A stretch of DNA of 63,970 bases, the filler included, from Klebsormidium nitens (lineage: Eukaryota > Plantae > Klebsormidiophyceae), in the NCBI GenBank assembly GCA_000708835.1. It is 6 parts of 6 records of this genome, joined end to end, with 100 filler letters (N's around TTAATTAATTAA, not from the genome) between each part and the next. Parts side by side here need not be neighbours in the genome. Positions count along the whole stretch, not along the records: positions 37,216 to 62,094 come from DF237463.1; 5 more parts are not named here. One strand, 5' to 3'. Shown one piece after another: positions 9,786-58,309 of the stretch (its first letter is position 1; each line of letters begins with the position of its first letter). The notes beneath the pieces were generated by a model. The model did not search any database and had not been told where the DNA came from. It was given only the letters and a program-made list of their open reading frames with translations. The position numbers were made by a program, and so were the translations under genes.

Positions 9786-9793
9786 AAACCCTA
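9786..9793 (+). promoter_or_regulatory. Possible telo-box (AAACCCTA) in the divergent MFS / DNA polymerase intergenic region
   Basis: Exact AAACCCTA next to a GC-rich tract upstream of the polymerase ORF. An 8-mer can occur by chance. Confidence 0.3.
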
Positions 9794-9942
9794 GATGGGG
9801 GCTGTGCGCGGCCGCGCCGGTTCGAAGTCGCGGCCGGCCGGCCGCTCTTCCACGGCAGAACGTGACGGTCACTAGCTGAGCTGAGCCGGCCTGGCTAGCT
9901 GAGCTCTGCATGTGAGACAGTGAGTGTGTCCGTCGCTCGGCC

Positions 9943-9990
9943 AGGAGTCCTAATCTTACTAAGATTAGGACTCCTAAGATTAGGACTCCT
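9943..9990. repeat. Perfect 16-bp-arm hairpin followed by a direct copy of one arm
   Basis: AGGAGTCCTAATCTTA-C-TAAGATTAGGACTCCT (9943-9975), then TAAGATTAGGACTCCT again (9975-9990). Confidence 0.85.
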
Positions 9991-10565
9991 TCTTAGATGG
10001 AAGTAGAAAATCAACCATGCGCAGTCCTTAGAAGACATGAAGAATGCTTGATTCCCGCATGATTCTGAATTGAGAGTACTGACACGAGTTTGATAAATAA
10101 TTCTTATATGAGCAATTGTGGGAGAGCTGATCAGTGCAGCATGCTATGGCAGTAGACCAAGCAGTGAGAGCACTCTTGACAAGTGCTTGGAGGCAGGCAG
10201 CTTGCAGAAACGATTGCATCATTATGCAAGGCAGTTCACGGATTGTATAAACGTAAAAACGTACAGTCAGTGCGCAACCATAACATTCGCACCTGAGGCA
10301 AATGCCAAACTCAGATTGGCTGTCTAGGTCCGGTATGCTCCCTGTTCGCCTGACAAAATGGCCGGACTGTTCGCCTGTACGTGACACCCTAATGGACTGG
10401 CTGTCCTGTGACTCGGGGCTTGGAGAAGTTGTAACCGCAGAAGCTGATTAGTTCCACAAGCGTAAGAATACAACCTACCATGACAGAAAAACACATTTGA
10501 AGCTGCATTGAAGCCGCTTGGTTGTGCGGAACGGAGAGAATCAAGCGTGAAGCATCTGCCACACA

Positions 10566-29745: not shown

Positions 29746-30039
29746 TCGGAATGCTCGCGCGTTGAGCGATGAGCACTCAGCTGACGTGAGTCCGTTGGAT
29801 TGAGCAGGCATTTTGAGCGCGGAATGCGTCATTCCGCATAAGCAGCCCCCGCTTATGAGCGGAACCCTGACCGCCGCGGCCGCCTGACCGCCAGGCGGCG
29901 CGCGGCCGCGACTAGCTGACTGGGCCACTGAACGAGAAGACGTCTTGCTTAAAAGAAGAAGACGCTCAGTTAGCTCTTCAAGAATACCACAGAAGGAAGC
30001 GCCCGTGGCGCCTCCAGACTAGCTCTACGCTTCTTTCGA
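29746..30039 (+). repeat. Split direct repeat A1
   Basis: Reads identical to 36385-36678; left end truncated by a gap. Confidence 0.9.
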
Positions 30040-30062
30040 TTGGGTATTTGGCGCGAACTAGG

Positions 30063-31097
30063 ATGGAGAGAGAATTAGAAACCCTGATCGCCATTAAAGG
30101 CCTTCCTTGGCTGGTGGGGAAGGACTTTCAGGTGATGTACGAGGGAAGACCAGTCCTGACCATTCTGTCAGAACTTCATCCTAATGGCACTTTCTCCGGG
30201 GTAGATGAGGGTGGTAACCGTTATCCAGGCACCATCGCCCCCGCGGATCTAAGGATCGGAAGGGGAACTCGTTTGAACAACGACCCCGTGATCGAGGCTT
30301 TGAGGGAGTACAAGCTAGAGTGGGAACAGTATACGGTCGCCATCCCCGGCTTTGGAGCCTTTCCTGCACCTCCGCCGCCTCAGCAAGGCTTCCGTCCTGA
30401 GGGGCAGGCAGCGCGCTTTGGGGTTCACCCCCAGGCACCAGGGTTTCCCCAGGCAGGACAAGGGCAGCCTGAAGTGAGACCGCCTCAGGTGCAGATACCA
30501 CAGCAGAATTATGCTTTCGGGATGAATCTTGAACAAACTCCGGCTGCAATGGCTGCGCAGACGCCGGCTATGAGGATCCTGCAAGGGGGGCTGAACAATC
30601 CGTTTCACCCCGCATCCACCGCGAGACTTGAGAAGACCATTCGTCAGTTGGTGTCCAAAGGCACCTTGGAGACTCACTTGACGTCAGTGCTGCGAGAAAT
30701 TAATCCGAAGCTGCCCGCGTGGTCCACCAAGGCAGCCTATCTTTTCGACATCTACCAGGAACCTGACTCTCAGGTGGCACACTTGCTGTCAGCCGTCTAC
30801 CTCTACGCTACGCGGCTTAATTACGTCTCTCCCGACTTGGAGTGGCTCGCCAACGCCTTCGTGGCAGAGAGGAAGATGAAGATCGAGCAGGCGGGAGACA
30901 GCACCACGTGGACGGCGGAGACGAGGGCAACGTTGGAGGCGGAGATTCGCCACGCTTTCTTTGAAAGCAAGGCGAAGGCGGACACGCTGCTTGGCAAGGG
31001 CGTGGTCCGCCCCCTCTTCGACCCAGACAAACCGCCAAGGTCAGAACTCGATCCTACTCTCACGCAGGCCTATGGCTTCCGATTCGGTTCTGTATAA
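30063..31097 (+). CDS. gag-like ORF1 of the YR retrotransposon
   Basis: Long intact ORF directly after repeat A1 and upstream of pol, with a P/Q-rich middle. Assignment is positional. Confidence 0.7.
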   Translation: MERELETLIAIKGLPWLVGKDFQVMYEGRPVLTILSELHPNGTFSGVDEGGNRYPGTIAPADLRIGRGTRLNNDPVIEALREYKLEWEQYTVAIPGFGAFPAPPPPQQGFRPEGQAARFGVHPQAPGFPQAGQGQPEVRPPQVQIPQQNYAFGMNLEQTPAAMAAQTPAMRILQGGLNNPFHPASTARLEKTIRQLVSKGTLETHLTSVLREINPKLPAWSTKAAYLFDIYQEPDSQVAHLLSAVYLYATRLNYVSPDLEWLANAFVAERKMKIEQAGDSTTWTAETRATLEAEIRHAFFESKAKADTLLGKGVVRPLFDPDKPPRSELDPTLTQAYGFRFGSV

Positions 31098-32152
31098 GTG
31101 GTCGTACACAGTTCAGTTGCAACGGAACGAGAACCAATTAATTCCGAGTTCCCTGAGACGCAGGCTTCGGTCGGTCTATAGCCTTGCTAGGGACCAGAAG
31201 GTGGTCTCCTTGGTGATCGATGGTGTTATAATAGCACCGATCACGTCAAGAAATGCAGTCGACTAAATGTCAAAGCCCTGTGGGTCTAATTTTTAGATTG
31301 AACGGTAAGCTGACTCGGTTAGAAATTGGACAACTTGGTTGAACGTCCCGTTAAAGAAGTTGTTCAGGAGAGTTTGTTGGAGCCCTGTGGGCATAGCTAA
31401 AGGAGCTGCGGACAAGTGAAGGTCCTGAGCAGGTGCTCGGCCATGTGCGCCATCGTGACGTCACCTTTTGGGCTTAATGCCCGGGCCCTGTGGGCATGAC
31501 AGGGGTAGAATTGCTACCTTGTGAGTCTGAAGAGCATAAAGCTCGGCCATGTGAGCCATATCTGGGCATAGACGCCCCTCAAATGTGAGACGAGCCTATA
31601 AAAGGCAGGCATGTGTCCTAACGCCGGTTTATGCCGGCTTGCAGAAGGAACAACGGCAACAACAACCAAGGCAACTGGAACCAGGGCAACTGGAACGCCC
31701 CGCCGGGGGGACGGCAGAACTTCGGAGGCGGCCAAGGCGGCGGCCGCGCTAGGTTTGGCCGCGGCTTCGAGGGAGATAGGGAGAATCAAGGGGATCAAGG
31801 AGCAGGGCAGAATAGAGGCAACAGGTAAACCCGCGAGCGGTTCATAAAAATGTGAGGTTACGTCAGTGTTACGTGATCGGTAGAGATAGCTTACGAAAGT
31901 AGGAAAGGATCAGTGAGGCGAGCGAAAGAATGTTAGATGGTCGAAGTAGACAGCGTTAACGACACCTCAGAAGTTGTAAAAGCTGTGCAGAAGAACTGAG
32001 AGATTCAAGTATGTTCAAGAGCCTTCTTTGGCCCCTTTCAGACTCACGACTCCTGGCGCGTGCGTTCAGAAATTCTAACTATGTTCACCAACTGCCAAAA
32101 GTGTATGGGCTTGAATGAATGATCGTCTGGTAAAGTACCGACGGGAAATTAT

Positions 32153-34645
32153 ATGCACGGCTTTAGATTGCTGATGCATCACCGTTGCAATGACAGCGGT
32201 TCATCGCCTATGGCGCCTGCGGAGATCGCGCTGTCCGAAGCGGAGCCCTGTGGGCTCGACGCTGAGCAAGATTCATCGGAACAGCGAGAAGCTGCGCACG
32301 ACCCCTCAGTGGTCGAACCGCACTCCGACAGCACTGGGGACGTGGAACTCAGCTTCGAGTCCGCGGCTGATGAAATAGACCTAGATGCTGATCCGTTAAC
32401 AAGCGCCGGTAGCCCTTCAGATGCGTCAAAGTGGGATTTCGAGTTCTTCTCCTCTCGTTTCACGCCACGTGTCGCGGCGGCAGTGGACGCGGAGCAGCTC
32501 GCCCGCGACCTGAAGTCCCTCCTGACGGAAATCGAGGCGGGGCCGGAATTTAGCGTGATGACAGAAGAGGAGCTGTCAGCTTGGCTCAAGTCGGTCGAAG
32601 AGAAGGTGCCACCAGTCGAGAGTTTCGTGGCCGGCAGTTTCGGTCGGCACCTCCGCGCTTGGGAAGAGTTACTGAAGGATTCCACGCGGCCGGCTTCCAA
32701 GACAGTGCTGTCCTGGTTACGGAACGGCATCAAGCCGTCTTTCGTTGGCACAGCCCAGTGCGACCCCAAGAAGCTGGAGAGGGTGCGGCTCATGCTTAGG
32801 AGAACGATAGGAGAGGCAAAAGTCGGGGAGTGGCTCTCAGGGGAGGTGCCGCACCCTGTGGAATTTCCCAATCACCGCTCTTTTTACGAGAACGCGGAGT
32901 TCGGCATCAAGACGGTCGGCGAGATGTTGGTTAACGGATCGGTTGCGCTTTTCGCGCCGGGTGAGCGCAAGCCTAAGGTAGTTAACCCCCTAGGAGTAGT
33001 TAACCTCCCCAAAGGGCGCCTAGTGTTAGATGCCGGCTACGTGAACGCGTTCTCGAAACCGCACCCGTTCAAATACGAAACGTTGCGCGACATCCTCACT
33101 TTTCTGGGGGCCAACGGCTTCTTCTCGACTTGGGACTTCAAGGCGGGCTACTACCACGCCCTCATTCATCCCCGCTTTCGGACTTACTTCGGCTTCAGAA
33201 TTGGCAAGGCCTACTTCCAGTACAACGCCATGTGCTTCGGCTGGTCCGAAGCCTGCTACGCCTACACGCTGCTTACTCAAGAAGCAGCCAAGGAGCTCCG
33301 GGTCAGGGGTATCCCCGTTTCGAGTTACCTGGATGACGGTTTAACCGCCAATCAGAGCTTTGCTCTGTGCCTCTGGCTCGTTGTGGTGATCATCCGCTTT
33401 CTCACCCTTCTCGGGGCGGTGTTCAGCCTGCCTAAGTGCCAATTCTGGCCCTCCAAGACCGGCGACTGGCTAGGATTCGTGGTCGACACTCAAGCGGAGC
33501 AGTTCAGAGTTTCGGAGGCGAAGTTAACCAAGGTCAAGGCGGTCTTAACCGAACTCCTTAACGCGGCTGACGTCAGCCCCCGTCTCCTCGCCAAGGTTGC
33601 GGGAAAGATCATCGCAATGGGCCCCGCGGTGCTGCCGGCCTCCTTGTTCAGTCGGCCTTTGTTTCAGGCGATGCAAGGTCGCATCTCCTGGGATGAAGTT
33701 TTTCCCACGCCGTTGGCGGCCAAAACCGCCGCTAAACTCTTCTTGGAGCGTCTCGACGACTGGAACGGAAGGCGGTGGTTTCCCCGCCGAGTCCTAATCG
33801 AAGCTGCTTCCGACGCATCCGACTTCGGGTTCGGGGGATCCCTCTACATCGCCGGCAGCCCCCCCTTCCACGTGGCAGGTTCTTTGACGGAGGCAGAGGT
33901 TAAGCAGTCGAGTACGGCGCGCGAAATGGTGGGTTTTCTTCGCGTTCTTCAACAGGCTGTCCTTCACCACCGCCCTCTCCTCTCCGGGGCCGCTGTTTTG
34001 CTGATTGGCGACAACCAAGGCGCGGTGGCGGCCGTCAATAGTATGAGAAGCTCGGCGCCCGACGTAAACGGGGTTCTCCAGGAGATATTCACGCTCTGTT
34101 CAGAAGGAGATTTCGACGTCCTAGCTCAGTGGAAACCGCGCGCAGAACTGGCAGTAGAGGACGCGCTTAGTCGGGTGCCAGACGCTTCCGACTGGGGCCT
34201 TGCCCCGGCTGTCCTGAAAGCCGCCGTCTCGCTGTTCGGACAGCCAGACGTGGACCTCTTCGCTTCGGACACGTGGCATGTAGCAGAGCGGTTTGTGACC
34301 CCTCGCTACATGCCGGGCTGCTGTGCAGTCGATGCCCTTCGAACGGACTGGCGGACTCTTGTAGAGCAAGGCGAGACGGCGTGGATATTCCCGCCGGTGA
34401 GGGCATTGCCAAGCGTCATTCAGTCCATCCGCAACTTTAGAACGGATGCGATCCTGGTAGTCCCGGAAGCGACCACCACTAATTGGTGGCTAGAGTTAAT
34501 GCACTTAGGCAGTGACGCGAGCATGGCAGGCCCGCTCGAGATTGAGCGATCCACGGATGCGTGCATTCCGAGCAGGCGAGTGCCTGCCGGAACCGTAAAC
34601 CCCGCTTTGTACAAGCTCAGAGTATTCAAAATAAACTGGAAGTAG
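32153..34645 (+). CDS. pol ORF: reverse transcriptase, RNase H and DIRS-type DNA N6-adenine methyltransferase-like domain
   Basis: RT: GRLVLDAGYVN, WDFKAGYYH, MCFGW, YLDDGL. RNase H: SDASDFGFGG, SSTAREM, GDNQGAV, DALSR. MT: DVDLFAS and WIFPP. Confidence 0.92.
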   Translation: MHGFRLLMHHRCNDSGSSPMAPAEIALSEAEPCGLDAEQDSSEQREAAHDPSVVEPHSDSTGDVELSFESAADEIDLDADPLTSAGSPSDASKWDFEFFSSRFTPRVAAAVDAEQLARDLKSLLTEIEAGPEFSVMTEEELSAWLKSVEEKVPPVESFVAGSFGRHLRAWEELLKDSTRPASKTVLSWLRNGIKPSFVGTAQCDPKKLERVRLMLRRTIGEAKVGEWLSGEVPHPVEFPNHRSFYENAEFGIKTVGEMLVNGSVALFAPGERKPKVVNPLGVVNLPKGRLVLDAGYVNAFSKPHPFKYETLRDILTFLGANGFFSTWDFKAGYYHALIHPRFRTYFGFRIGKAYFQYNAMCFGWSEACYAYTLLTQEAAKELRVRGIPVSSYLDDGLTANQSFALCLWLVVVIIRFLTLLGAVFSLPKCQFWPSKTGDWLGFVVDTQAEQFRVSEAKLTKVKAVLTELLNAADVSPRLLAKVAGKIIAMGPAVLPASLFSRPLFQAMQGRISWDEVFPTPLAAKTAAKLFLERLDDWNGRRWFPRRVLIEAASDASDFGFGGSLYIAGSPPFHVAGSLTEAEVKQSSTAREMVGFLRVLQQAVLHHRPLLSGAAVLLIGDNQGAVAAVNSMRSSAPDVNGVLQEIFTLCSEGDFDVLAQWKPRAELAVEDALSRVPDASDWGLAPAVLKAAVSLFGQPDVDLFASDTWHVAERFVTPRYMPGCCAVDALRTDWRTLVEQGETAWIFPPVRALPSVIQSIRNFRTDAILVVPEATTTNWWLELMHLGSDASMAGPLEIERSTDACIPSRRVPAGTVNPALYKLRVFKINWK

Positions 34646-34744
34646 GACGTACAGGTGGTAGCAACGGTCGAGAAGTTTGGTGCAAATGACTACAAAACTC
34701 AGACATAACACAACTGTGCAGCCGCCTGACTAGAGGACGCCATG

Positions 34745-34860
34745 GGTCGAGTCTTAGTGACGCAGAATTTTGGATCAGCCTAGAGCGACTGTGGCACGTA
34801 TTGGTCGAGTCTTAGTGACGCAGAATTCTGGATCAGCATAGAGCGATTGTGGCACGTATT
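34745..34860 (+). repeat. 58-bp tandem duplication between the converging pol and YR stop codons
   Basis: GGTCGAGTCTTAGTGACGCAGAATT...GTGGCACGTATT twice, with about 3 mismatches. Confidence 0.85.
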
Positions 34861-35053
34861 AGTAGTCAGAATCGAATGCATTCAATAAGCGCACCTTGGG
34901 CAGCGCGCGCGCGAGCGCCTCACATGTGCAAGCAAGGGCCAAAAATTTGTCACGGCACTCAAACAACTGCCTATGCGTCAAGCTGAAGCGCTTGTTGAAA
35001 TCGTGACCACGAATTGGCCGTCAATTACAAAAGTTCTCTGAGTCGCAAAGTTC

Positions 35054-36094
35054 TCACTTGCGCCACACTTCCTCTACATATAATCGGAAGGCCGCATAAC
35101 TCTTCCACCTCCCTAACTCCATTAACTGCTTAACGTTATAGTTCAGGTTCACCGCCGCATGCTGGACGGCGGAGCGACGGAAGCTATGCACAGTTTCGCC
35201 CTCGAACAGTCCGGCTTCCTTAAGCCGCTTTTGCAACCTTTTTCTCAAGGTGTCGCTGCTCATTGGCTCATTAACAAAACCGGTCCGACTCCTATTCATG
35301 GCCCGGAACAGGAAGCCATCCTCTCCGACTGGATGCCCTCCTTCTACCATACCGAGTAACAACGCCTCAGCAGCCGCCACGAAGGTTAGCCGGCTCTGAG
35401 ATTCCGGCGCCGCGAGCGGAATCCGCGCGCTGGGCTCCTGCCGGACTGTCTTACTCCAACCCGGGTAAGCCACCTGTTCCTCCAACTCCACTTGCCGTCG
35501 TTGCAGCTGCCCGCACTCCTTCCCCCGTGCGAGCGTCTCCCAAAGATACAACACGGCCGCCTGGTCCGTCAACAGAACGCACCTCTCTAAACCAGGGGAG
35601 CTCTCCTGGATCAGCCGCGCAAGGTGAGCTAGCAGTGCGTCCAGCTTTGCTTCCGTGAAGACTTTAGCGCACTGAACCTTCACCCCCTGCTCGTGCAACA
35701 TCTTCTCGTATCCCACGCGGAATGACTTCACCACCTCGGCTTTGGCGGGATTGGCCCGCCCTTCGAAACCGAGGAGGGAGTAAGACTTTGATAAGTCTTT
35801 TACCACGTGGGTCACAGCAGACGCTGACGGGATGGGCTCCCCCGTCCCGGGCAGCTTGGTCCTGCAACCGGCCTTATGATTGGGAATCCAATCCCCCAGG
35901 ATGAACGCCCCAACGTCAGCAGCCGTGGCGGTCTCGACCGTAACCCCGAATGCATTCCGCGCCAGGAAGTCTTGGTATTGCTGGAACGTCCGCTTGCGGC
36001 TGCTGTTGCTGGCTGCGTTAACACTCTTCTCGGCTATCTTTCCGAAGCTCGACAGCGCCCCGTCATAAAACTGCTGAGTCTGCTCCGCACTCAT
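35054..36094 (-). CDS. Tyrosine recombinase of the retrotransposon, antisense to pol
   Basis: LWETLARGKE (R), HSFRRSA (HxxR), LGRWKS (W) and FRLYV (Y). The ORF is open to 36193; the likely ATG is 36094. Confidence 0.9.
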   Translation of the reverse strand: MSAEQTQQFYDGALSSFGKIAEKSVNAASNSSRKRTFQQYQDFLARNAFGVTVETATAADVGAFILGDWIPNHKAGCRTKLPGTGEPIPSASAVTHVVKDLSKSYSLLGFEGRANPAKAEVVKSFRVGYEKMLHEQGVKVQCAKVFTEAKLDALLAHLARLIQESSPGLERCVLLTDQAAVLYLWETLARGKECGQLQRRQVELEEQVAYPGWSKTVRQEPSARIPLAAPESQSRLTFVAAAEALLLGMVEGGHPVGEDGFLFRAMNRSRTGFVNEPMSSDTLRKRLQKRLKEAGLFEGETVHSFRRSAVQHAAVNLNYNVKQLMELGRWKSYAAFRLYVEEVWRK

Positions 36095-36246
36095 TTTTCC
36101 GCTTGCTCCGCAGGTCCCACCCAAGCCCACCCCACGAATTTCCCGCAGCTTTTCCTCGCATCTTCGTTGAAAAGCCAACCTGCAGACGGACAACCACTGT
36201 TATCTTCCATAATTGTCGTTTGGCGCAAACGATTGTCTTTTTGGGG

Positions 36247-36678
36247 CGGCGTTTTCGGCACAACAGAGGCGCTTTGCAGCCGTCCGGGCGCCCCCCAACA
36301 CCCCTATCGGAAGGTTGATATTAAATGGAGCTGACAATTTTGACTCTGTGATTGGTTAGCAGAGTGTTCTTATGATTTTAGTCATCGGAATGCTCGCGCG
36401 TTGAGCGATGAGCACTCAGCTGACGTGAGTCCGTTGGATTGAGCAGGCATTTTGAGCGCGGAATGCGTCATTCCGCATAAGCAGCCCCCGCTTATGAGCG
36501 GAACCCTGACCGCCGCGGCCGCCTGACCGCCAGGCGGCGCGCGGCCGCGACTAGCTGACTGGGCCACTGAACGAGAAGACGTCTTGCTTAAAAGAAGAAG
36601 ACGCTCAGTTAGCTCTTCAAGAATACCACAGAAGGAAGCGCCCGTGGCGCCTCCAGACTAGCTCTACGCTTCTTTCGA
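36247..36678 (+). repeat. Internal B1-A2 junction of the split direct repeats
   Basis: B starts at 36247 (matches 37081-37115) and precedes A2 (36385-36678). Confidence 0.85.
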
Positions 36679-37080
36679 GAAGCTTCGCTTCGACCCTTCC
36701 CACCCACCCTGAGTGGATAATAACGCATGCTAACGCCTTACCTGTCTTCTGCCGGTGGGCCCCATCCTGTCAGCGCAGACTCCATGGCTCCCGGCGCCTT
36801 CACTGTCAAGTATGCTCAAGTACTGCCTGTCTTCCCTTCGCTGCAGAAAGCCATCTCGTACAGACTCGGCCCCGTCGCGTCACGCCGCGCCCGCCCAACC
36901 CCCCCAACCCTGAGTCACCGCGGTCAAACAATCCCGACCGTCCATCGAACTTTCAGAAATGTCGACACCATTAAATATCAACCTTCGGTCCGCGGCGACC
37001 TACTGCGCAGGTCAACCCGTATCGGTCGCCGCACTTCCCCGGACGCTCATACGCTTACCTCCGGTGCCCCTATGCCAACC

Positions 37081-37115
37081 CGGCGTTTTCGGCACAACAG
37101 AGGCGCTTTGCAGCC
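37081..37115 (+). repeat. Split direct repeat B2, truncated by a gap
   Basis: CGGCGTTTTCGGCACAACAGAGGCGCTTTGCAGCC is identical to 36247-36281. Confidence 0.85.
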
Positions 37116-37339
37116 NNNNNNNNNNNNNNNNNNNNNNNNNNNNNNNNNNNNNNNNNNNNTTAATTAATTAANNNNNNNNNNNNNNNNNNNNNNNNNNNNN
37201 NNNNNNNNNNNNNNNGCAGACCAGAAGCCTAGATTCCAGGACTCAAACGTGGAAAGTATATTTTATAAAACAACCAGCTTGCAAGTTCTATAGCTCTCCT
37301 CTACATGCAAACGCTTGCTCTGACCGTCGTCACCTACTC

Positions 37340-40180
37340 TTACGTATGAGATTCGTAGCCAGATTTCAGACGAACCCCCGAAAGGCCTTTGAACTGTCCT
37401 CGAGATTGTACCTGGCTATCCGTGAATCGACCGTCTGCAACCACCCAATTCTTTTCTTCAGCATGCTCCAAGATGCGCTTTTTCAGCGCCGTTGCCGACA
37501 GAGAGCTTGTCAGATCTTCTTCCTTCAACCAAGCTCGGAACACCTCTCCGAGCCGTTCGCCAACGGCTAAGTGCCATGTCGCTCTTTCTCCGGCTTGAAT
37601 ATCTTCGAAGTCGAGACAATCGACGATCCATCGCCTAGCAATGTCCGAATCGTTGATGTATGCTTTAACAGCTTCCTCCATGACACGAGGTCTGCGCATT
37701 AGTGGTAGCGTGTTGGGATTCGCTCGCTTGAATTCATGATAACGTTTTGCTCCCTCTGTGTACCAAGAAAGACCCTCATCTCGACCTTGGTCGCTTTTCA
37801 AGTAGGTTTCCAATGTTGTATCGATAAGCTTTTGGCGTGGTTTGCTAGAGTCAAGCTTTTCGGGAGGTAAGAAAGTGACCAACATCGGGAGTAGTGCCAA
37901 GCGTCGGGTGACACAGTAGGATACGTTCTGAAGAATAGGCTTGTAGTTCGTGTTGAGGACGGTTTTCACAGTAAGCTCAAATGTCTCCTGCCTGCTATGC
38001 AGCTCGCGCCCTGTAGTGGTCCCCCCGCTTGATAGGGCTTTCATTGCGGCTTCATTCAAGACTGCTTTCTCTCCCGACTCGTCGGTCTCCGCGAGACGCC
38101 CGCCTCGAAGAGCCATGATGTGGCTCGAAGCCGCGCCAGCCGACCGCTTACCGGCTTCAATGATGCAGTCTTCCGACATAACGACAGCGTAACTGCCTAG
38201 AACTTCGAGACTTGCCAGCTTTGTCAACGATTTTCCATTAGCTCCATTGCCTTGCTTGACAAGGAACAATTGTTCACTCATATCTGCGGTCATACAATAG
38301 CCGCAGAAGAGCTGATACCATTCGAGTACTTCTCTGTCATCGTTGAAACAATCAAGCAGGAACCTCTCGAATCGGCTTTCGGCCTTGGGCATTCCACGAA
38401 AAGTTGCTTTCGATGCGCGCGAACACAAATGAGCAGGATGAAATGCGAGCAACTTTCCGCTCTCGGTGTTAATGACGCCGTTCTGACAGGCAAACAGGAA
38501 CGGATTGGCGATATCAATCATCTCGCTGAGAGGTTGGGGAGCCTGCAAGGAGTTCACGACAAATTCAAGACATACACGAACCTCGGATCCCCGTGTCAGA
38601 TCCACCACATCTCGCTTCGTTGGGAAAGGATACGTTTTGTTGACCACCCTCCACGCAGTGCTGCATGCTTTTCTTTCTTCTTCGGTTGTTGGGTTCAATG
38701 CCCAATCTGGAAGAACTGGTTCTGGCGTTGATAAGACGTTCTGCTCTGTTGCAGAGCCTCTCATATGTGCGCAAATCTCCCGTTTGAAAGCATTCAATCT
38801 CTGTTTCGAATACCAGGTCATGATACGAGCCATGTGGTTGCTGAAGACGGTTTGTATATGGAACGCGTTATCGACTATCCATCTGCGGCCGTTCCAATAG
38901 TGAAAGCATTTGCCCTCAGCAATGATGCGTCCGTCGACGAGATACATGGCTGAGAAGATCGCAGCCATTCCTCGATAGCGCTGCGTCACATTACGCCGAA
39001 TAAGATTCATTTGTGCTTCCACGGCATCCTGCGACAGCGTTCTCATATTGTTTGGAAAGGTACTCCAGTCATGAGTTGGGTGCAAACGTACAGGATTGGC
39101 ATCCAACAACGACACTGGTATTGGAATATTGCCGAGCTCCGTGAGAGGCTTCTCCTTGCATTCAGAGCCAAAGCATCGATAGAATATCGTCCATCCTCGC
39201 TTCACGAGCGTCAGGTTGTTGCTACCAGTGTGGTGATGACCATGTATGCAGGTTCGAGGACCATGACAGATGAACGAATAGAGCATACCATATGGACCAC
39301 GGGAGGTCACGCTGCCAGAAAAGCGAACATTTGCGTCGAGTCCAGCGTCCTGTAACAACTGCATCATCGCATCAGCAATCTTCTCGTGCTCGAGTGCTTG
39401 TCTATTGTGTGTGTCATTGGTACCCACTTCCATTTGCATTGCTTCTTCGACAGTGCTTGATTCAAGCCCCCTTGTTTGCTCGGAATCAACACCGTTTGCC
39501 GGCAAATCTTGGGTTCGATCGCTCGAAGTCGACACGAAACTCTTGTTTGCAGATCTCCCAGCAAAATCGTTGAGGAATTGGATCACCCATGATGGAGCTG
39601 GTCGGATGTTTGTCCTTAAGGGTTGTGCGCACCAGGTGTAATTCAATCCAATCTCAGGTGAGCCTGGCGGGGCCAGAACGATGCCTCCATCTCCACGGCC
39701 ATCGATCCCGAAATACTGACCCTCATAGTCCACTCCAGCAAAACACTTTCCTGATTGGAGTCCGTTTTTGAGTGATCCACCATACGAGAAGTAATAATGG
39801 AGCCCCCCGCTTGCAGAAATGGCCTTTAGAGTATCTGGATCTCCGTGTTCCGCAATCAATCTATTCCAGAGAGGCATGCCAGCTTGAAGATCTTTCTCTG
39901 GTTTGTCTCGTGTGTCTATGTCAAGCACGAAGATGTCCGAAATGGCTCCCGTCTTGATTGCCAAGAAGTTGTATCGTTCTATTTCAATCTTTTCCATGAT
40001 GCGATCCCGCGCCAAACTCCAATCCGACGCCGTTCTTATTGCGTGATTGCCCTTCGTATGCGGCATAGTTCCAAGAATCTCCTTCGATCCTTTGCCCGTC
40101 GCTCTAACTTTTGCGGGAACAGCATATAGTCCCTCTCTTGCATACGCGTCTAAGACGTGCGCAATCGAATCCGTTGCCAT
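37340..40180 (-). CDS. Bifunctional primase-polymerase (AEP Prim-Pol) fused to a D5-like SF3 helicase, intact and intronless (~946 aa)
   Basis: AIKTGAISDIFVLDID, SASGGLHYYF, GIDGRGDGGIVLAPP; Cys/His segment CIHGHHH..YRCFGSEC; D5_N FACQNGVINTESGKL; Walker A GNGANGKS; Walker B LAETDES; motif C LNTNYKP; TRRL. The likely ATG is 40180, and the ORF is open to 40390. Confidence 0.92.
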   Translation of the reverse strand: MATDSIAHVLDAYAREGLYAVPAKVRATGKGSKEILGTMPHTKGNHAIRTASDWSLARDRIMEKIEIERYNFLAIKTGAISDIFVLDIDTRDKPEKDLQAGMPLWNRLIAEHGDPDTLKAISASGGLHYYFSYGGSLKNGLQSGKCFAGVDYEGQYFGIDGRGDGGIVLAPPGSPEIGLNYTWCAQPLRTNIRPAPSWVIQFLNDFAGRSANKSFVSTSSDRTQDLPANGVDSEQTRGLESSTVEEAMQMEVGTNDTHNRQALEHEKIADAMMQLLQDAGLDANVRFSGSVTSRGPYGMLYSFICHGPRTCIHGHHHTGSNNLTLVKRGWTIFYRCFGSECKEKPLTELGNIPIPVSLLDANPVRLHPTHDWSTFPNNMRTLSQDAVEAQMNLIRRNVTQRYRGMAAIFSAMYLVDGRIIAEGKCFHYWNGRRWIVDNAFHIQTVFSNHMARIMTWYSKQRLNAFKREICAHMRGSATEQNVLSTPEPVLPDWALNPTTEEERKACSTAWRVVNKTYPFPTKRDVVDLTRGSEVRVCLEFVVNSLQAPQPLSEMIDIANPFLFACQNGVINTESGKLLAFHPAHLCSRASKATFRGMPKAESRFERFLLDCFNDDREVLEWYQLFCGYCMTADMSEQLFLVKQGNGANGKSLTKLASLEVLGSYAVVMSEDCIIEAGKRSAGAASSHIMALRGGRLAETDESGEKAVLNEAAMKALSSGGTTTGRELHSRQETFELTVKTVLNTNYKPILQNVSYCVTRRLALLPMLVTFLPPEKLDSSKPRQKLIDTTLETYLKSDQGRDEGLSWYTEGAKRYHEFKRANPNTLPLMRRPRVMEEAVKAYINDSDIARRWIVDCLDFEDIQAGERATWHLAVGERLGEVFRAWLKEEDLTSSLSATALKKRILEHAEEKNWVVADGRFTDSQVQSRGQFKGLSGVRLKSGYESHT

Positions 40181-40304
40181 GCTTTTCCACAGACCGAAGG
40201 AGGTTCGGAGCCCCCTTATATTTTCAACCCCAGAAAATTTTGTTTGACATGGAACGCGGCACTCGACGGAGCCCACGCTTGCAGAGACGTGTTGGTTAGT
40301 ACGA

Positions 40305-40541
40305 CTAAATCCAAGGAAGAGCAATCTGTGCCTCATAAAGTCGCTGCCTCGTCCGTCTACTTGTCTTGCTTCCTTTCGCAATTCGTTCAAGAGCCTTCTT
40401 CAAGAGAATCTCATCCTTGTGTACTTGATAGTAACTCTTTGAATATTCTCTTTTCTTCGCCTGATGCTCGTTCTTATAGATGCTCGCCTCCAAACAAGCA
40501 GCACACGCGGTCGATCCATGATTGTGATTCGTCGATTCCAT
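40305..40541 (-). CDS. Small basic putative DNA-binding protein (~78 aa)
   Basis: MESTNHNHGSTACAACLEAS..KKREYSKSYYQVHKDEILLKK.. fills the space between the YR and the primase genes. The K/R-rich helix resembles those in small viral proteins. Confidence 0.55.
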   Translation of the reverse strand: MESTNHNHGSTACAACLEASIYKNEHQAKKREYSKSYYQVHKDEILLKKALERIAKGSKTSRRTRQRLYEAQIALPWI

Positions 40542-40637
40542 AGTTGGAGTGCAATTGAAGCCTCCTAATAATTCTAATATAGAAAAAGTGCTTCTCAAAG
40601 AACGCACACAAAGTGCAGACAGAAGACAATTGTCCAC

Positions 40638-41681
40638 TCATTCGAATCGTCTATTATAGAGTTCATCTGCAGTCCGCATGCTATGGCCCATGTATTGGGC
40701 CTTCGCTCTCACTTCACCACGGGACATCAACTTTGGGCTCTGTTCAGTATGTGAGATGTGTCGAAGCAAAGTGCAGCTGAGGTTTCTACCGAAATGGCGT
40801 TGACCAAGGTCGTTGAGAACTACGGTGAAATTTGATATCGGTTCATCTTTCCAGACGAGATAATGCCTCTTGAGGATCAAATGTTTTCTAGGAATCAGAT
40901 TGAAGGATCTGAGTATAACCTTCACGAGATCTTCGGGGATCTCAAGGCGACGAACTCCATCCTTTTCAAGAGTCTTGTGTCGACCAATATGAAAGAAACA
41001 CTTCTTGGGATCGTCGTTCAACTCGACGACGTTGATGTCACCCGGTTTGACCGCAACGCAATCATTCTCGTGTTCCCTCATGAAGAAGATGCATTCCGCG
41101 TACTCATTCCGTAAAGGTCCCAGCGGCATCGTGTAGAGTGCGAGGATCAGATGGTCTATCACCAGCTGCTTGTCATGGCGATCTAAGCGTTCCTTCTTCA
41201 GGAATCTCGGCACGACATAGCGATTGATTTGGTCGTCCAGTTCTGATCGCTTGTCTATAAGCTCGGACCAAGGAATCCAATTGTTGACTTCTTTTGGCGT
41301 CTTTCTCTGCATAGAGTGATCGAGCTCCTCCTCGGTTGGCTTCATCCTCTGCATGTACTTCGAGTAAGCCGATTGCGACTTTCCAGAAGCAAGAATAGCG
41401 AAAGGGGCTGCATAATTACTCTTCGTCAATGATTTAAGGAGCTTGCCATCACGCGACGTGAGACTCTCTATGGTCGAAATCACCTGCTCGTGGTCCTCGA
41501 TCCAGTCGAGACTGTTCATCACGCCCGGCCCAAAGTCTCCAGCCGCATATACGGTTTTAAGTTGCCTGATGTAAACAGACACTGTTGTATCTGATCTGTT
41601 TGGCGGAGCTCCACGGAGAACCTTATCCGGAGATTGGACCTTCAGTTTTCTGCGTACCTCTGCTTCGAAGTTGGAATCCAT
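40638..41681 (-). CDS. Tyrosine recombinase/integrase (PLV-type), catalytic residues intact
   Basis: PLRNEY (R), GRHKT (K), TLLRHISH (second R), MGHS (H) and ADELY (Y) near the C-terminus; N-terminal core-binding-like region TTVSVYIRQL. Confidence 0.85.
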   Translation of the reverse strand: MDSNFEAEVRRKLKVQSPDKVLRGAPPNRSDTTVSVYIRQLKTVYAAGDFGPGVMNSLDWIEDHEQVISTIESLTSRDGKLLKSLTKSNYAAPFAILASGKSQSAYSKYMQRMKPTEEELDHSMQRKTPKEVNNWIPWSELIDKRSELDDQINRYVVPRFLKKERLDRHDKQLVIDHLILALYTMPLGPLRNEYAECIFFMREHENDCVAVKPGDINVVELNDDPKKCFFHIGRHKTLEKDGVRRLEIPEDLVKVILRSFNLIPRKHLILKRHYLVWKDEPISNFTVVLNDLGQRHFGRNLSCTLLRHISHTEQSPKLMSRGEVRAKAQYMGHSMRTADELYNRRFE

Positions 41682-41743
41682 CGCCGTGAAACTGCCTCGT
41701 TGTTACTAATCTTCACAGATATTTTTTGTAAGATACGAACGTA

Positions 41744-42559
41744 TCAGAGTCGATCTGGATTGAAGCGCTTTCCATTGTACTGGATCTTGCTCAGGAACAT
41801 GGACCAGTTACTAGCAGACATAGCCGTCTGCGGCTGAGTGATCGAAGTCAAGAAGTGATCTCGAGGTATCAATCGCAGGGTCCGATGAAGATACTTGCTC
41901 AGCATCTTCGATAGAGGGATTCGATCCCCATCTTTGAAGACGAGTTTGTAATCTCCCTTGCGTCGTGAGGTCTGCAGCAAATAGCTCGCACCCTCGATCT
42001 GTTGGCCCTTCGGCATGATTGGAAGCTCGTGCACTTTTACCCGACGACGATGCTCCTTACTCAAGAGCATATGCCATTCGAGGACGAGATGCCACATACA
42101 GAGCTTCACCTCCTTAGGAGTGAGATCTCGATCCATGTCCTCGAGACTCAACTGTCTGACCTTGCGAGCGAGCTTCTTTCCGAATGTCTCGATCTCTTCA
42201 ACGGTCATCTCTGATCTGGCGTCCAAGGTCTTGGTCTCAATCTTTCGTTGAGCGGACTCCTTTAGGGCCTTGTTTTCCTTCCGAAACGGCTCATAATAAG
42301 TTTGATAAGCCTCCACATAACCGAGTTTGCGGCAAATAGCAAGAAAAGGGGCCAAACGAGTACGCCTGGATCCAGGGTTATCATAGCGCTCTAGAACAGC
42401 TGCGACGATCTTCTGAGCCTTGGTCTTTATCCACGAGGGGTCTTCGGGCATCTTATCCTGGAACATCATGTTCCATAGAAGCTGAATCCCCTTGAGATAC
42501 TGCTCAGTGGAACTTTCGGTTCTGATCCCATCAGCTAAGACCTTTCGTAGGGTATCCAT
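41744..42559 (-). CDS. Degenerate tyrosine recombinase paralog (~271 aa) ending before the catalytic C-terminus
   Basis: Collinear with the 40638 YR by eye: SSTEQYLKGIQLLW/TTVSVYIRQLKTVY, PSWIK/LDWIE, APFLAI/APFAIL, HLVLEWH/HLILALY, LRLIPRDHFL/FNLIPRKHLI. TGA falls at the LLRH-equivalent Arg position. Confidence 0.75.
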   Translation of the reverse strand: MDTLRKVLADGIRTESSTEQYLKGIQLLWNMMFQDKMPEDPSWIKTKAQKIVAAVLERYDNPGSRRTRLAPFLAICRKLGYVEAYQTYYEPFRKENKALKESAQRKIETKTLDARSEMTVEEIETFGKKLARKVRQLSLEDMDRDLTPKEVKLCMWHLVLEWHMLLSKEHRRRVKVHELPIMPKGQQIEGASYLLQTSRRKGDYKLVFKDGDRIPLSKMLSKYLHRTLRLIPRDHFLTSITQPQTAMSASNWSMFLSKIQYNGKRFNPDRL

Positions 42560-42670
42560 AGTTATGACCTGCCTACGATGATGTAAGAAAATAATTTTAT
42601 AACGTCTCCCATTTTGCAACAAGTTATTTAAAAAAGGTTCGTCACAATAAAATGACGTCGAAACCTCTCC

Positions 42671-42769
42671 TAAACGTTTATTTTCTTGAAACTGCGTGCG
42701 GGGGGCGGAAAATTGTTGAGAAATCTCGAGATTTTTCAAGAGAATAACTAGTTATTTCAATAGCACGTG
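42671..42769. promoter_or_regulatory. AT-rich palindrome cluster upstream of the YR pair (candidate promoter, att site or origin)
   Basis: TAAACGTTTA (42671-80), 24-bp TTGAGAAATCTCGAGATTTTTCAA with 1 mismatch (42716-39), AATAACTAGTTATT (42743-56) and CACGTG (42764-69). Confidence 0.5.
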
Positions 42770-42949
42770 ACACTTTTTTGCTGGCCTCTCCACATGCGCT
42801 TCATTCCACTAACTCTGCTTGTGGTGGAGGCAATTTTGAAATCATCATACAGCAGAGCAAAAGACGTCGTACATAAGGCCAGGCTCCAAACCAGATGATT
42901 TCATGAAGCATGGAGCTAGGATCATGTTTTATCTGCAGGCCAGCATTTT

Positions 42950-45900
42950 AGTATATACCTAATGTAGATAGTAGATATTTCTCATCAGGTAGCTTTGGCG
43001 CGTGTGCTGCTTCCTCGAAGCTCTTTCCACACAGACACACGTTCTCCTCTGTCCGATGCTTCTGCTTTTCACAAGCTTCTTCAAAGGCGGCATAATCCAC
43101 AAGTCTTTATTCCGCTCAGAGGTGAGAAATTGGTGTTGCTGCTTTTTGACTGCTTGCAGATAAGGTTATTTTCATGAAAGCTACATTCTTCCTCCTTCTC
43201 CATTCTTTCTTGTTTTCGAATCTTGTCTTTCTGAGAATTTTTGAACAATCTGTTTCGATCCGCATTGTGTTGCTTTCCATAATGTCCGAGCTGCTATTGC
43301 AAGTTTGGACATCTGGTTCCGTTGATGGAAATAAGTTGTCACAAAAGCCAACACAATGCTGATGCTTAATATTGTTCAGCAGGCTCTTTTCAAAATGCTT
43401 ATTAAGCCTCAAGGTCAAACATGCCTATGTGCAGAAGGGGGTCCTGCAGCCTTAACTACCTGCAAGGCAGGCGGCTTAGAATGCATGTCAGCAAAAATTT
43501 TTACTACCATACTCTGAATGCTTGCTTTGCTTGACTGTTCTGCTTCCTCGCCGTAGAGCAGCTGGTGAAAATCGTAGATTGATACGGCCCCGACACGCTC
43601 CCTGTAAATTGCCGATCGGATGCCTTTCGTAGAAAGGCGTCAGAACCGTAGCATTGAGGCTCTCGCACCTCAAGCTCGAAGAGAAGAGCGTTGGCGGCCC
43701 TCTTGAGCGCAATTCCACGATGTTCCGCATAGACCATGCTAAGATCTCCTGAGTTGCCCAGAGACCGAAGCCTCTCACACTCCAAGGCCCACAGATGCTC
43801 CGTAGCATCAAGGAGCGTCGACAGAGGGGACCGACCGGAGGCGCTAGGGCAGTTGGCACTCGGTTCCAAGCAGAGGAGGTTGGTCGCGTAGATGTCCCGA
43901 AGGAGCGGACGCAGTGCTGCTGCAAAGGCGTACAGTCGAGGACCCGTTTGCACTTCACCAATTGCGTGCAGCCGGAGAATGGCTGCTAGAATCGGCCCAT
44001 TGTTGGCGAGGTAAGCAAGTCCTCGCTCGTCAACTGGCCCCTCGAGCAACAGGTGTCGAAGCAGCTTTAGCGTCAAGATGTTGCCAAACACCCACCTGTA
44101 GCGGGGTATCAGGAGGGCGTGCAGGAGGGCCGTGTATGGCTTGAAATGGGTCGGGCACCAACCCGTGGGCGCCACAGGGCCCCCCTTCAGCACCCCGTCC
44201 ATCCACGGTCGACGCGCGACCATCCAGACCGCACAAGTCTTAGGGTCGGCGCAAATCGCGGATTCCGTCGCAAGGTCGATCGGGGTCCCCACGTTTGCCG
44301 GCAACCTCTGACGCATGGCCACAAATACCTCCGCCAAGAGAGGCGTGTTTGACCCTTGAGCAGGCGCCTTGCGAAAAGTTGCACCCTCGGAGGCCGCAGC
44401 TCGTACGGCCGGCTTCAGCTCAGACAACCCGTTCCTGAACTTCCAAGGGCAGTCGATACCCTCAAGCGGGTCGTTTGAAGGCCGCACCCCACTGATGCTG
44501 AAAGGAGTGAAACCCCCTGCCACGTGAGGTGCCTCTGGGTCCGGCTCGCAGATGCTATGCAACGTGGCTTCCGTGCTGTCCCGCATAGCACTTGAGTTGG
44601 GAAAAACGTCCCGTCAAAGTGACAACTTTGTCGCGACTGAACATACAAATTGCCAGATTTGAGGTGGACCCCTCGGTTCGCTCCGGTTTGAGAGGGCAAC
44701 TAGCTCTCTCTGCCTCAGCCTCGGCAGCTTGCACCTCAGACGTGTACAGATGAGCACAATTGGGACGTCCGCAGACGTGCTGGATCCGAGACCGGGCTGC
44801 CAAGTCGTTGAAGGCTTGCATCGCTACGTCGAAGACGCAATCGTCTAGCATAAGAGCGTCCGGCCCTTCGAGACTCATGGTTGCCATGTTGTTGGCGTCA
44901 AAGTTGAGGCTGTATGATGCTCCAAGGGCCGCCGCAAAGTGATTGCGCAGCAAGAGGCCGTGCGAAATGAGCCGCCATGTCGGAGAAGTTGAATATGCCA
45001 TCTTCCTGTTCAAGAATGGAACATGGACATGATGCATTCGAATGGAACTCCTCAAAAATTTATAGAATATATGAGCAATTAAGATATGGAATCAAATGAG
45101 AGGTTTGCATCTGTTCTGAGCATCTGTGCAAGAATGGACAACTCGCCCTTGGTGGAATAGCAGCCTCCGCGTCAACCAGCAAAGAAACTCAAGCCGCTGA
45201 TGGAAGTTTGATGGATGAATTTCTGGTCCCGTCGAATGGTGCACCCGGCCCACGGACATTTCTCATGGTTCCTCCTCAGCCTTGCCGACTCTGCGGCCTT
45301 CAGTTCACCATCCTACAATGGCCGATGTCTCCCAATGTGGGCTCGTGGTTTGCAAGAAGTGCCTCCATGCACGGTAGGAATCACACCCTCAGCCTACCGA
45401 CTAGAAGAATGCTGTCATCCCATTGGTCCACCATATTCCCCTGGTAGGGTCTAGAAATTGTACGTAAAGAGAAGGGCTTTAATCACTTTAAGTAGTCCGG
45501 AACTGCCTCAAGACTCAAGGGTAAAGGACGTGACCCTAGCCTTTAAGTACCGGAGCCACTCCGTACGCCACGCGCGCTGCTCGCGCACATTCGCAAGGGC
45601 ATGTGCCAATCCTAGTATGCTACCATGGCTACGTTGAAATTAACCGTCGGGCGAATACGGCGGACTCTTCCCGTGACTCTAACTACGGTGTCTTCCCCCC
45701 GGGCTCTTTCAGCCCCGAAATGTTTAGAGCAAGTGCCCGGTAAAACCGATTGCCCTGTAGTAGCAGTTTTAGTTGCTTTCGATTGCACTAACTAATTTCA
45801 TGCCACAATGGTCGTCGCGGCGATGGCGATTTCCGTCCAAGTAGCGCACTCCTCGGATGATAGGGGTCTCGACTTGGTGCCGTAGCCATTGCTGTGCCCT

Positions 45901-50209: not shown

Positions 50210-50971
50210 TTAGATATGACCAGCTTGCACCACTATCAATGTCTCGGACGATACGAGAGATACGCCAAACCGTTCAGCCCTCTGGTTACGTGTCTCGTGA
50301 CCTGCTGTCGTGGTGCTTGACTTTGAGGCTTTGATCTTTCGGGCTAGCTCCTCTGTAATCAAAGACTTATGGTGTTCCGCACCCCTGCGTATCGTTCCAT
50401 TGGCAATCTTGTCTTCGTAATAATCCTCTGATTGGGTCCCATACACCAAGTGACTCGGCTCGAAACAGAGGGGCTGAAAACAAAGGTGTCTGATGACCAT
50501 CCTGACACCATCTTTGTCGCAATAAGGAGGAGGATAAATCAAGTCGTTACGTAGCATGTACGCGGCCCTGTGCCTCTGTAGTCTGTGACCGCCAAGCGTC
50601 ACTGTGTTTGCTGTTTTAGCCACCAAACAACCATTTGGTAGACGGACTCCATGTCCCTTCAATCGAGTCCAGGCAGCTTCGCGGTTAAACCTGCCCTTTT
50701 TAGGCACCCTCTGTAGGTGCTCAATGTTGACACAAGAATTGTTCCCACAAGACCTCTGACAGGCATGGAACTCGTCGATGAGTTCGTCAGGGTGATGGAG
50801 GTCCCAAAGGAAACGGTGTACACTGACAACCCGAGTGTCCTTCTGGGGCGTTACACCAACACGGCACGATGCACCAGTTGTGTTCCCATTCCAAGGGAAA
50901 CAACCATTTTCATCAGTTGGACCTGTTCTGGCTTTCAATGCCGTGAAGAAAGTTGAGTTCCAGTCCGCCAT
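50210..50971 (-). CDS. Tandem HNH/His-Cys-box homing-endonuclease-like protein with a C-terminal HTH
   Basis: VSVHRFLW..CQRSCGNNSCVNIEHL and HRAAY..VIRHLCFQPLCFEPSHLVYGTQSED, then NGTIRRGAEHHKSLITEE..RAERFGVS as in phage or giant-virus HNH endonucleases. Intronless. Confidence 0.8.
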   Translation of the reverse strand: MADWNSTFFTALKARTGPTDENGCFPWNGNTTGASCRVGVTPQKDTRVVSVHRFLWDLHHPDELIDEFHACQRSCGNNSCVNIEHLQRVPKKGRFNREAAWTRLKGHGVRLPNGCLVAKTANTVTLGGHRLQRHRAAYMLRNDLIYPPPYCDKDGVRMVIRHLCFQPLCFEPSHLVYGTQSEDYYEDKIANGTIRRGAEHHKSLITEELARKIKASKSSTTTAGHETRNQRAERFGVSLVSSETLIVVQAGHI

Positions 50972-51075
50972 GCTCTGGCTCCTGCTTCTCAGGTAGAAAC
51001 TAAACAACAATGGGTAAACGCAGACCATATGAAAGGATCCTAGCCAAATGCACTTGAATTGCTGAGTCGTTTAAA

Positions 51076-52491: not shown

Positions 52492-52788
52492 TTAAATCCA
52501 TATGAGAAAGATTATGACCGCATGCTTTTGTGCATGTTGCATGTCAATAAAGTGTCCAAATCTCCTCCTGCATCCTGAACAAGATCCAACGTTCATGTAG
52601 TCATTGACATGCCAGGCTCGAATGGGGCATGCGCATGTGGCATAATCCAACAATTTGCCTGTCAGACGTCCACAATTGCGAAACTTTTCTACCCAAAAAC
52701 AATATGCAATGGTCCCATGCTTTATGCATAAAAACGATTGGCTGCTGTTCGACTTGTAGACACGGATCGTCGTTACGATATGCGTCAT
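52492..52788 (-). CDS. Small Cys-rich hypothetical ORF
   Basis: 98-aa ORF with CACP and CSGC motifs beside the primase gene; no family recognised. Confidence 0.3.
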   Translation of the reverse strand: MTHIVTTIRVYKSNSSQSFLCIKHGTIAYCFWVEKFRNCGRLTGKLLDYATCACPIRAWHVNDYMNVGSCSGCRRRFGHFIDMQHAQKHAVIIFLIWI

Positions 52789-53103
52789 TTGTTGGACGAA
52801 GTTGATTGTTATGACATGGATTTAGAACGTCCTAATGTTCTGATCGACCGAGGACTGCACATTCAATCAATTGGCAATGCGGATCTAAGAAGGGGGATAT
52901 TGCTATTCCTAGCACGTGCAATGGATCCGGTGTCAAAGACAACCACTTTGAGATCTCTGTCGAACTTTCTAGACAATGAGATGTGTTCTCCATATAAAGA
53001 AGCCGGATATTCTGCGCGAAACGTCAATCTGATTCTATATGAAGCGGAGCAAGTGCTTGGTAACGGCGTTGAACGAGGTTATACGGAAGTTATTCAAACG
53101 TAA
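52780..53103 (+). CDS. Small hypothetical ORF (~107 aa) converging on the primase gene
   Basis: MRHLLDEVDCYDMDLERP...EVIQT*; intronless, no family recognised. Confidence 0.35.
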   Translation: MRHLLDEVDCYDMDLERPNVLIDRGLHIQSIGNADLRRGILLFLARAMDPVSKTTTLRSLSNFLDNEMCSPYKEAGYSARNVNLILYEAEQVLGNGVERGYTEVIQT

Positions 53104-53177
53104 CAAAGCTCTGAAAGACTTCGTTCTCCAATGAGATGCTGTACATATCAGGGACTTGACTTATCTCAAGAACCTTG

Positions 53178-58212: not shown

Positions 58213-58309
58213 CTGCACCAATTGCACACATCGTCAGTATCAAAAAGACACATAAGTCTGCAACCTAGTTGTGAGCCCACAACATAGGGTCGAGTTTAGC
58301 CCTACCAAG

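Follow-up and report, generated by a model that had tools for sequence, protein, structure and literature searches.

A truncated tyrosine recombinase relative beside an intact recombinase in a multicopy, apparently capsid-less element of Klebsormidium

The window, that is, the whole stretch of 63,970 nucleotides of Klebsormidium nitens DNA that we analysed, contains four neighbouring genes with candidate end sequences on either side (Table 1). Two of them encode proteins of tyrosine recombinase (YR) type: YR1, which is intact, and YR2, which is truncated and is assigned to this superfamily by its predicted fold. The third, ORF78, has a CxxC near its N-terminus; in the Atlas nothing reaches 0.9, and the nearest entries, small unnamed viral proteins at 0.88, are a lead only. 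ORF78 is a candidate for a small DNA-binding accessory protein, Xis-like in kind. The fourth is a primase-helicase gene.

Table 1. Genes, stop codon, spacer and proposed ends of the element, in positions of the window
Feature	Position	Strand	Description
Left boundary region, near 42777 (T run)	42763-42797	+	candidate attachment site
Two perfect 14-bp palindromes	42721-42734, 42743-42756	.	inside the left end, upstream of YR2; putative binding sites
YR2	41744-42559	-	271-aa basic pseudo-recombinase: core-binding domain and catalytic domain truncated at the Arg-II column
YR2 stop codon in the catalytic Arg-II column	41744-41746	-	TGA here, TAA in other copies, family-wide
Spacer from YR2 stop to YR1 ATG	41682-41743	-	62 nt; read-through frame not conserved
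YR1	40638-41681	-	347-aa tyrosine recombinase; similar to Polinton-like virus recombinase
Basic ORF78	40305-40541	-	78 aa from the first ATG (110 aa from the GTG at 40637); no family found
Prim-Pol / D5-type SF3 primase-helicase	37340-40180	-	frame open to 40390; likely start MATDS, counted from the translation
Tentative right boundary, near 37290	37286-37308	+	~30-50 nt past the helicase stop

In the public run X3, 1527 contigs of mixed identity aligned on 1.3 kb, which makes the element multicopy. Homologs of the helicase lie on contigs sized like those of both YRs (54068 and 91093) or of YR1 (10087 and 8654), and the locus search with the helicase alignment returned a phage-like contig only. 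The four genes fill 37340-42559, so that there is no room for the major capsid, minor capsid and packaging ATPase genes of a Polinton-like virus between the boundaries, the right one of which is tentative. The locus is apparently a multicopy, capsid-less Klebsormidium element of ~5.5 kb consisting of YR2, YR1, the 78-aa ORF and the primase-polymerase/SF3 helicase, and it is likely mobile.

The left boundary was placed near 42777 because the depth in run X3 drops from 393 to 22 at 42776 and loose ends are found at 42777-42778 in runs X6, X7 and X8. An arm at 42763-42769, inside the element, has an imperfect inverted counterpart outside it (42791-42797), which resembles the flanks in three other runs. 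These three foreign flanks and the window's own diverge right past the T run, yet by eye they share a short motif ~12 nt outside the boundary (42778-42800), and the X6, X7 and X8 flanks share a further stretch; the shared motif suggests either that a certain target sequence is preferred or that the true end lies further away. For the right end, 10 of the 13 positions in 37296-37308 agree with the left flank, a level equalled in six of 501 bins. The motif was widened after the site had been seen, and its unbiased degenerate version is matched by 99 of 504 bins; because that version is weak, we treat the right end as tentative. Past it lies an assembly gap (at about 37117-37216). No terminal inverted repeat, a feature of Polinton-like viruses, was present between the proposed ends, of which the right one is tentative, among the 25 longest of 119 inverted pairs (at least 22 nt, 28000-56000), and there is no iteron-like repeat array inside the element.

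Other element-like sequences lie in the same window. A DIRS/Ngaro-like retroelement occupies 29746-37116 between two assembly gaps, with a 294-bp perfect direct repeat at 29746 and 36385, a gag-like ORF (30063-31097, plus strand), an ORF that by eye resembles RT/RNase H (32153-34645, plus strand) and a convergent phage-integrase YR (35054-36094, minus strand; Pfam PF00589), the third YR within 5 kb of the element and unrelated to it. The stretch 52732-58233 includes a second, frameshifted Prim-Pol/D5 helicase, 29-33% identical to the first, in pieces at 55233-58233 (minus strand); another helicase-like C-terminal piece lies at 53178-53825 (minus strand), and 53883-54612 contains 5.2 tandem units of 141 bp. 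The 272-aa ORF at 50210-51028 has two HNH_3/His-Me endonuclease stretches of a kind common in viral-type elements.

Judged by its sequence, YR1 has the catalytic residues of an active tyrosine recombinase: R191, K236, R307, H333 and Y342 are common to all 12 intact rows of our alignment, while the His-I column, Thr in YR1 (T304), is variable in the clade. Its predicted model matches the same recombinase family as the YR2 model. Against viral contigs, the sole matches of the YR1 alignment are YRs at 24% identity, among them one on L001 (E 6e-14, tblastn), a capsid-encoding viral contig on which capsid and packaging ATPase ORFs were identified by eye; by eye, too, other matched viral contigs have ORFs resembling the packaging ATPase of Polinton-like viruses (PLVs). 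We weighed this 24% match together with a fold match to an Aureococcus virus protein in considering membership in the OLV11-like YR family. The YR1 alignment found no related locus in genome contigs, and YR1 had no match among annotated phages. On contig L004, a YR of the same broad family forms the N-terminal part of an 884-aa ORF (8799-11453), with a lipase-like region (GHSLGG) behind it.

An earlier, sequence-only reading had described YR2 as a degenerate twin of YR1, collinear with it, lacking the segment with the catalytic Lys and stopping exactly where YR1 has its catalytic Arg. The anatomical part of this description holds. YR2 ends in NGKRFNPDRL followed by TGA, and in a 19-row alignment the TGA falls in the column of YR1 Arg307 (T-L-L-R-H), which is Arg in 12 of 12 intact relatives. 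The beta-hairpin that carries Lys236 in YR1 (GRHKT) is 8-9 residues shorter in all six YR2 rows. Stopping at the Arg-II column, YR2 is therefore without His-II, the Tyr and the C-terminal helices; its R173 is still in register with the first catalytic Arg, a position held by Gly in a second subfamily (B). Active YRs are defined by an R-K-H-R-H pentad plus a Tyr nucleophile (PMC8138268, available part), and of these YR2 retains the Arg-I column alone. Since the Lys hairpin, Arg-II, His-II and Tyr are gone, YR2, as far as its residues tell, cannot cut DNA by the YR mechanism.

What YR2 seems to have retained are the DNA-binding parts, and what it has lost is the chemistry and the tail that links subunits. 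The pI is 9.1 to 9.8. Among five full-length members 96 of 271 positions are invariant; in the core-binding domain the count is 41 of 95, and it includes the basic motifs SRRTRL and KLARKVR. Past the TGA the frame stays open for 33 more codons, exactly the residues quoted in the earlier reading, and overlaps the first 40 nt of YR1 before stopping at 41642. This tail, whose Tyr near the end that reading had pointed out, does not look as if it supplied a meaningful nucleophile: scored with a profile built from intact YR tails, it obtains -1.4 bits, a value reached by 600 of 1000 shuffles, compared with 53-75 for held-out YR1 tails and 19 for a PLV-like tail. Scored in this way, the DNA downstream of the stop holds no His/Tyr remnant.

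The kinship of YR2 and YR1 is real but distant. BLASTP aligns them over 37 aa at 38% only, and profile-profile comparison of their homologs gives a match (E 4e-8, probability 95%) that spans 253 columns with 17% identity, so collinearity and YR homology stand and the word twin is an overstatement. Over residues 1-271 the predicted model of YR2 (pLDDT 83.9) resembles the structures of Cre, XerA, XerD and integrases with Z of 7.5-8.4, values that the note of the structure-comparison tool itself calls middling near 8, and the alignments end near 271; for Cre, 217 residues are aligned at Z 8.4 and rmsd 7.2. Nearly all top PDB rows from Foldseek are YRs, though with E > 0.001, and the best viral fold matches (E ~1e-5 (1.6e-5) to 3e-4) include a Heterosigma akashiwo virus protein labelled as a Tyr recombinase domain. 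Further fold matches are MrpR, SroF and the Ndc10 DNA-binding domain (Z 7.2). By its modelled fold, then, YR2 belongs to the tyrosine recombinase superfamily. Our A3 profile search recovers intact YRs at E 1e-25 to 5e-4, and in the Atlas the nearest clusters to YR2 are unnamed viral ones at 0.97, followed by YR-named clusters at 0.93. Pfam and PHROGs named neither YR2 nor YR1, and a PDB sequence search with the joint YR1/YR2 alignment gave no matches.

In the tree the YR1 proteins and the YR2 proteins make up one clade each, supported at 100/100 and comprising the same two subfamilies, and YR2 is placed with other intact YRs from metagenomes, not with YR1. A recent tandem duplication of YR1 as the source of YR2 was rejected along with the single YR1+YR2 clade (AU p=0.016), a rejection of moderate weight given several long branches. 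P0042, a 273-aa protein on a 4438-bp Logan contig, is a separate dead truncated YR and sister to the intact P0044: its Arg-I column holds Ser, its Lys loop is altered and it ends a few residues past the Arg-II region. A single origin of YR2 and P0042 was likewise rejected (AU p 6e-5), which suggests that dead truncated YRs arose a second time, though P0042 could be a pseudogene.

Besides the window's own protein we found 22 members of the YR2 family, which were compared as proteins; the named matches are from Klebsormidium nitens. Thirteen of them reach the C-terminal column, and all 13, down to 43% identity, stop in the Arg-II column, with ends such as PDRM, PDRL, PNRL, PGRL, PKQV, PDRF and LERI. 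The remaining nine end earlier, being fragments or broken copies, and none of the 22 extends further; one copy, on a 91093-nt contig, is split in two (P0012 and P0035). At the nucleotide level the codon was compared in the public runs X3, X5, X7 and X10, X7 barely covering it: the sole listed change is TGA>TAA (X3, X5 and X10), and no Arg codon (CGA) is among the variants listed there, so the comparison of Arg with stop that the earlier reading proposed returned stops only. In the copy that encodes P0017, residues of the YR2 read-through frame seen here fall in the YR1 frame, and the spacer therefore differs by a frameshift between copies. Locus searches found nothing related to YR2 in metagenome contigs or viral contigs; P0036 and P0042 had no related locus in viral contigs, and the P0044 search returned a distant YR only.

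Conservation of YR2 goes beyond its end. Seven contig sizes occur among both the YR2 and the YR1 matches; in pairs matched by identical contig size alone, the pairwise identities of the two proteins correlate (27 of 28 pairs usable, rho 0.85, Mantel 42/40320), and in the paired copies and the window YR2 has diverged about as slowly as YR1. Of the 38 listed variants of YR2, 23 are synonymous where 12.1 would be expected; once codons hit more than once are removed, 16 of 22 are, where 7.0 would be expected (p 1e-4). Because the variants are the best-supported subset (the best 40 of 195 in one listing and 13 in another, a biased sample), this excess is indicative and is not a dN/dS. From these comparisons YR2 is likely under selection and likely travels with YR1, and as far as conservation goes the earlier proposal of a conserved inactive partner is borne out. 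The stop is ancestral to the family, and it may go back to a CGA>TGA change in the common ancestor. Because every relative reaching the Arg-II column stops there, YR2 is likely a long-kept non-cutting helper and not a freshly broken copy.

What would such a protein do? We give about even chances to the reading that YR2 is a conserved pseudo-recombinase which binds DNA and assists or directs YR1 at the ends of the element. YR2 would be expressed, and its contacts with DNA would be made by the conserved, basic core-binding domain and by the helix that precedes the stop; its putative targets are the palindromes and the att-like arms at the left end. All cutting is predicted to be done by YR1, which would excise and integrate the element, the Prim-Pol/helicase would copy the excised circle, and YR2, as the non-cutting partner, would help or direct both excision and integration. 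Several observations weigh against this role. Nine of the 22 homologs end early and one copy is in two pieces. The C-terminal helix that YR2 lacks links the subunits in synapses of Cre, Xer and lambda Int, and its absence argues against a normal heterotetramer. The nearest precedent is indirect as well, since a knockout of tfp, the dead recombinase gene of a bacterial element, was not achieved according to the available text of PMC10214605. A predicted YR1+YR2 complex scored 0.14 and 0.07, and we counted it neither way.

A bolder extension of the helper reading, which we consider rather improbable, sees here a new capsid-less, self-replicating and target-selective eukaryotic integrative family assembled from PLV-like parts. 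Pairing of YR2 with YR1 would restrict cutting to one strand pair, and the primase-helicase that the element encodes would resolve the Holliday junction formed in this way, for a copy-out/paste-in mode of spread. Exchange of one strand pair resolved by replication is known from integrons and CTX phage.

Unlikely, but to be taken seriously as the main alternative, is that YR2 is an MrpR-like repressor or immunity factor that binds the 14-bp palindromes or blocks the YR1 sites and so keeps the element silent and integrated. Counted from the left end, YR2 is the first gene, and the two perfect palindromes lie upstream of it, in its presumed promoter, a position that fits a repressor equally well; the missing tail, which would hinder synapsis, points the same way. 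MrpR and SroF are among the fold matches, and MrpR provides a precedent of a YR fold turned into a repressor after losing catalysis (PMC10516654, part available). However, the palindromes are also less than 60 bp from the boundary, and tight co-divergence with YR1 fits shared DNA sites, which suits a helper and a repressor alike.

We think it very unlikely that YR2 serves replication or maintenance, marking an origin for the Prim-Pol/SF3 helicase or tethering the excised circle in the manner of Ndc10. The element does have its own primase-helicase, the palindromes near its end could be an origin, and the Ndc10 domain is among the fold matches; however, an iteron-like array is lacking inside the element, and linkage alone ties YR2 to the helicase. 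The chance that YR2 is a functionless passenger, dead long ago and copied along with the element, is slight: the high copy number and the nine broken or partial homologs fit it, but the frame remains open across ~271 codons and keeps its end even at 43% identity, and the YR1-like rate, the synonymous excess and the invariant positions also speak against it.

Two further readings fare worse. Read-through or splicing could yield a longer active or fused protein, and the 33 open codons, the spacer residues in the YR1 frame of the P0017 copy and a public gene model that joins an upstream host exon to YR2 can be cited for it. We hold this to be highly improbable, as the tail does not resemble YRs, the stop is TGA in some copies and TAA in others, the spacer is frameshifted between copies, the Lys hairpin would be absent anyway and the splice adds an N-terminus only. 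The gene model in question, GAQ89356.1 (P0052), spans 43504-44586 and 41744-42567, spliced from a GT donor near 43665 to an AG that immediately precedes the start of YR2; its end is identical to YR2 and is preceded by 307 residues of the upstream ORF. The splice may be a prediction artefact or a real exonisation. Finally, the earlier suggestion that this copy encoded an active second recombinase until it was lost through a recent CGA>TGA deamination has next to no chance of being right: the register is exact and C>T plus G>A dominate among the X3 copies (73 of 122 places), but with the stop shared family-wide, no CGA variant listed, the Lys hairpin gone in all six YR2 rows aligned and no His/Tyr remnant downstream, an event private to this copy is excluded.

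How does the element compare with known systems? XerC and XerD, with which the earlier reading had compared the pair, both retain their active sites. Cryptons are YR DNA elements of eukaryotes, and dead YR domains derived from them, Ndc10 and the DUF3504 proteins, are domesticated host genes; we know of no Crypton with a primase-helicase. The present element, in which a primase-helicase is linked to the YRs by equal contig size, is not a YR-only element of the Crypton type, and YR2, unlike the domesticated Crypton-derived domains, remains inside the element. The likeness to XerCD and RIT holds in so far as XerC/XerD, RitA/B/C and Tn554 TnpA/B all have more than one YR gene per system; it is otherwise a weak analogy, as in the available part of PMC8138268 the partners are not truncated in the active site and no replication gene accompanies them, and Tfp/GinC and MrpR come closer.

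Tfp and GinC are YR-fold proteins without RHRY and core genes of the bacterial integrative elements SE/GInt (PMC10214605, as far as available). There the gene of a dead YR-fold protein and active YR genes are arranged in tandem at the left end, accompanied by a small extra ORF, and YR2 is alike by fold and layout, being a YR-fold protein without RHRY beside an intact YR at the left end. The SE/GInt elements differ in being bacterial and in having two active YRs, a Tfp of at least 550 aa and, among the core genes named in the text available to us, no primase-helicase; their circularisation is strand-biased and leaves no empty donor site. Instead of their gene set (intA-tfp-intB-srap or ginABCD), the Klebsormidium element has one intact YR, a 271-aa dead YR, the primase-helicase and the 78-aa ORF. 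Like YR2, MrpR (YopR) of phage SPbeta belongs to a mobile element and combines a YR fold with the loss of catalysis, and the same holds, to go by its PDB title, for SroF of phi3T. MrpR, however, has a full-length fold with point substitutions and is a demonstrated repressor, of a type that acts on a repeated operator (PMC10516654, in the part at hand), whereas YR2 is truncated at Arg-II, eukaryotic and next to an intact YR1.

By its parts the element resembles Polinton-like viruses, whose modules include OLV11-like YRs and a primase-SF3 helicase (Yutin et al. 2015, PMC4642659); the two are alike in the YR near the element end, the primase-SF3 helicase and the algal host, and the module resemblance draws also on PMC12220804 and bioRxiv 10.64898/2026.06.19.733378. 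The element differs from these viruses in its ~5.5 kb size, its lack of room for capsid or packaging ATPase genes between the proposed ends and its second, conserved dead YR, and neither a second dead YR nor a capsid-less form is described in the available portions of the three sources. The accessible part of PMC5890265 covers other K. nitens elements only. Our literature search found no account of the element, nor of a dead YR partner in PLVs, algae or other eukaryotes, though subscription papers, Repbase or supplements may hold one. The element, from a streptophyte alga, is apparently a relative or satellite of Polinton-like viruses that lacks a capsid and has not been described before. Dead recombinases conserved on mobile elements have been described in bacteria (Tfp, GinC and MrpR); a compact eukaryotic case with four genes, among them one intact and one dead YR, with candidate sites and with many copies makes the role of a dead YR directly testable. 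For genome engineering, a eukaryotic integrase that selects its target and brings its own control protein would also be of interest.
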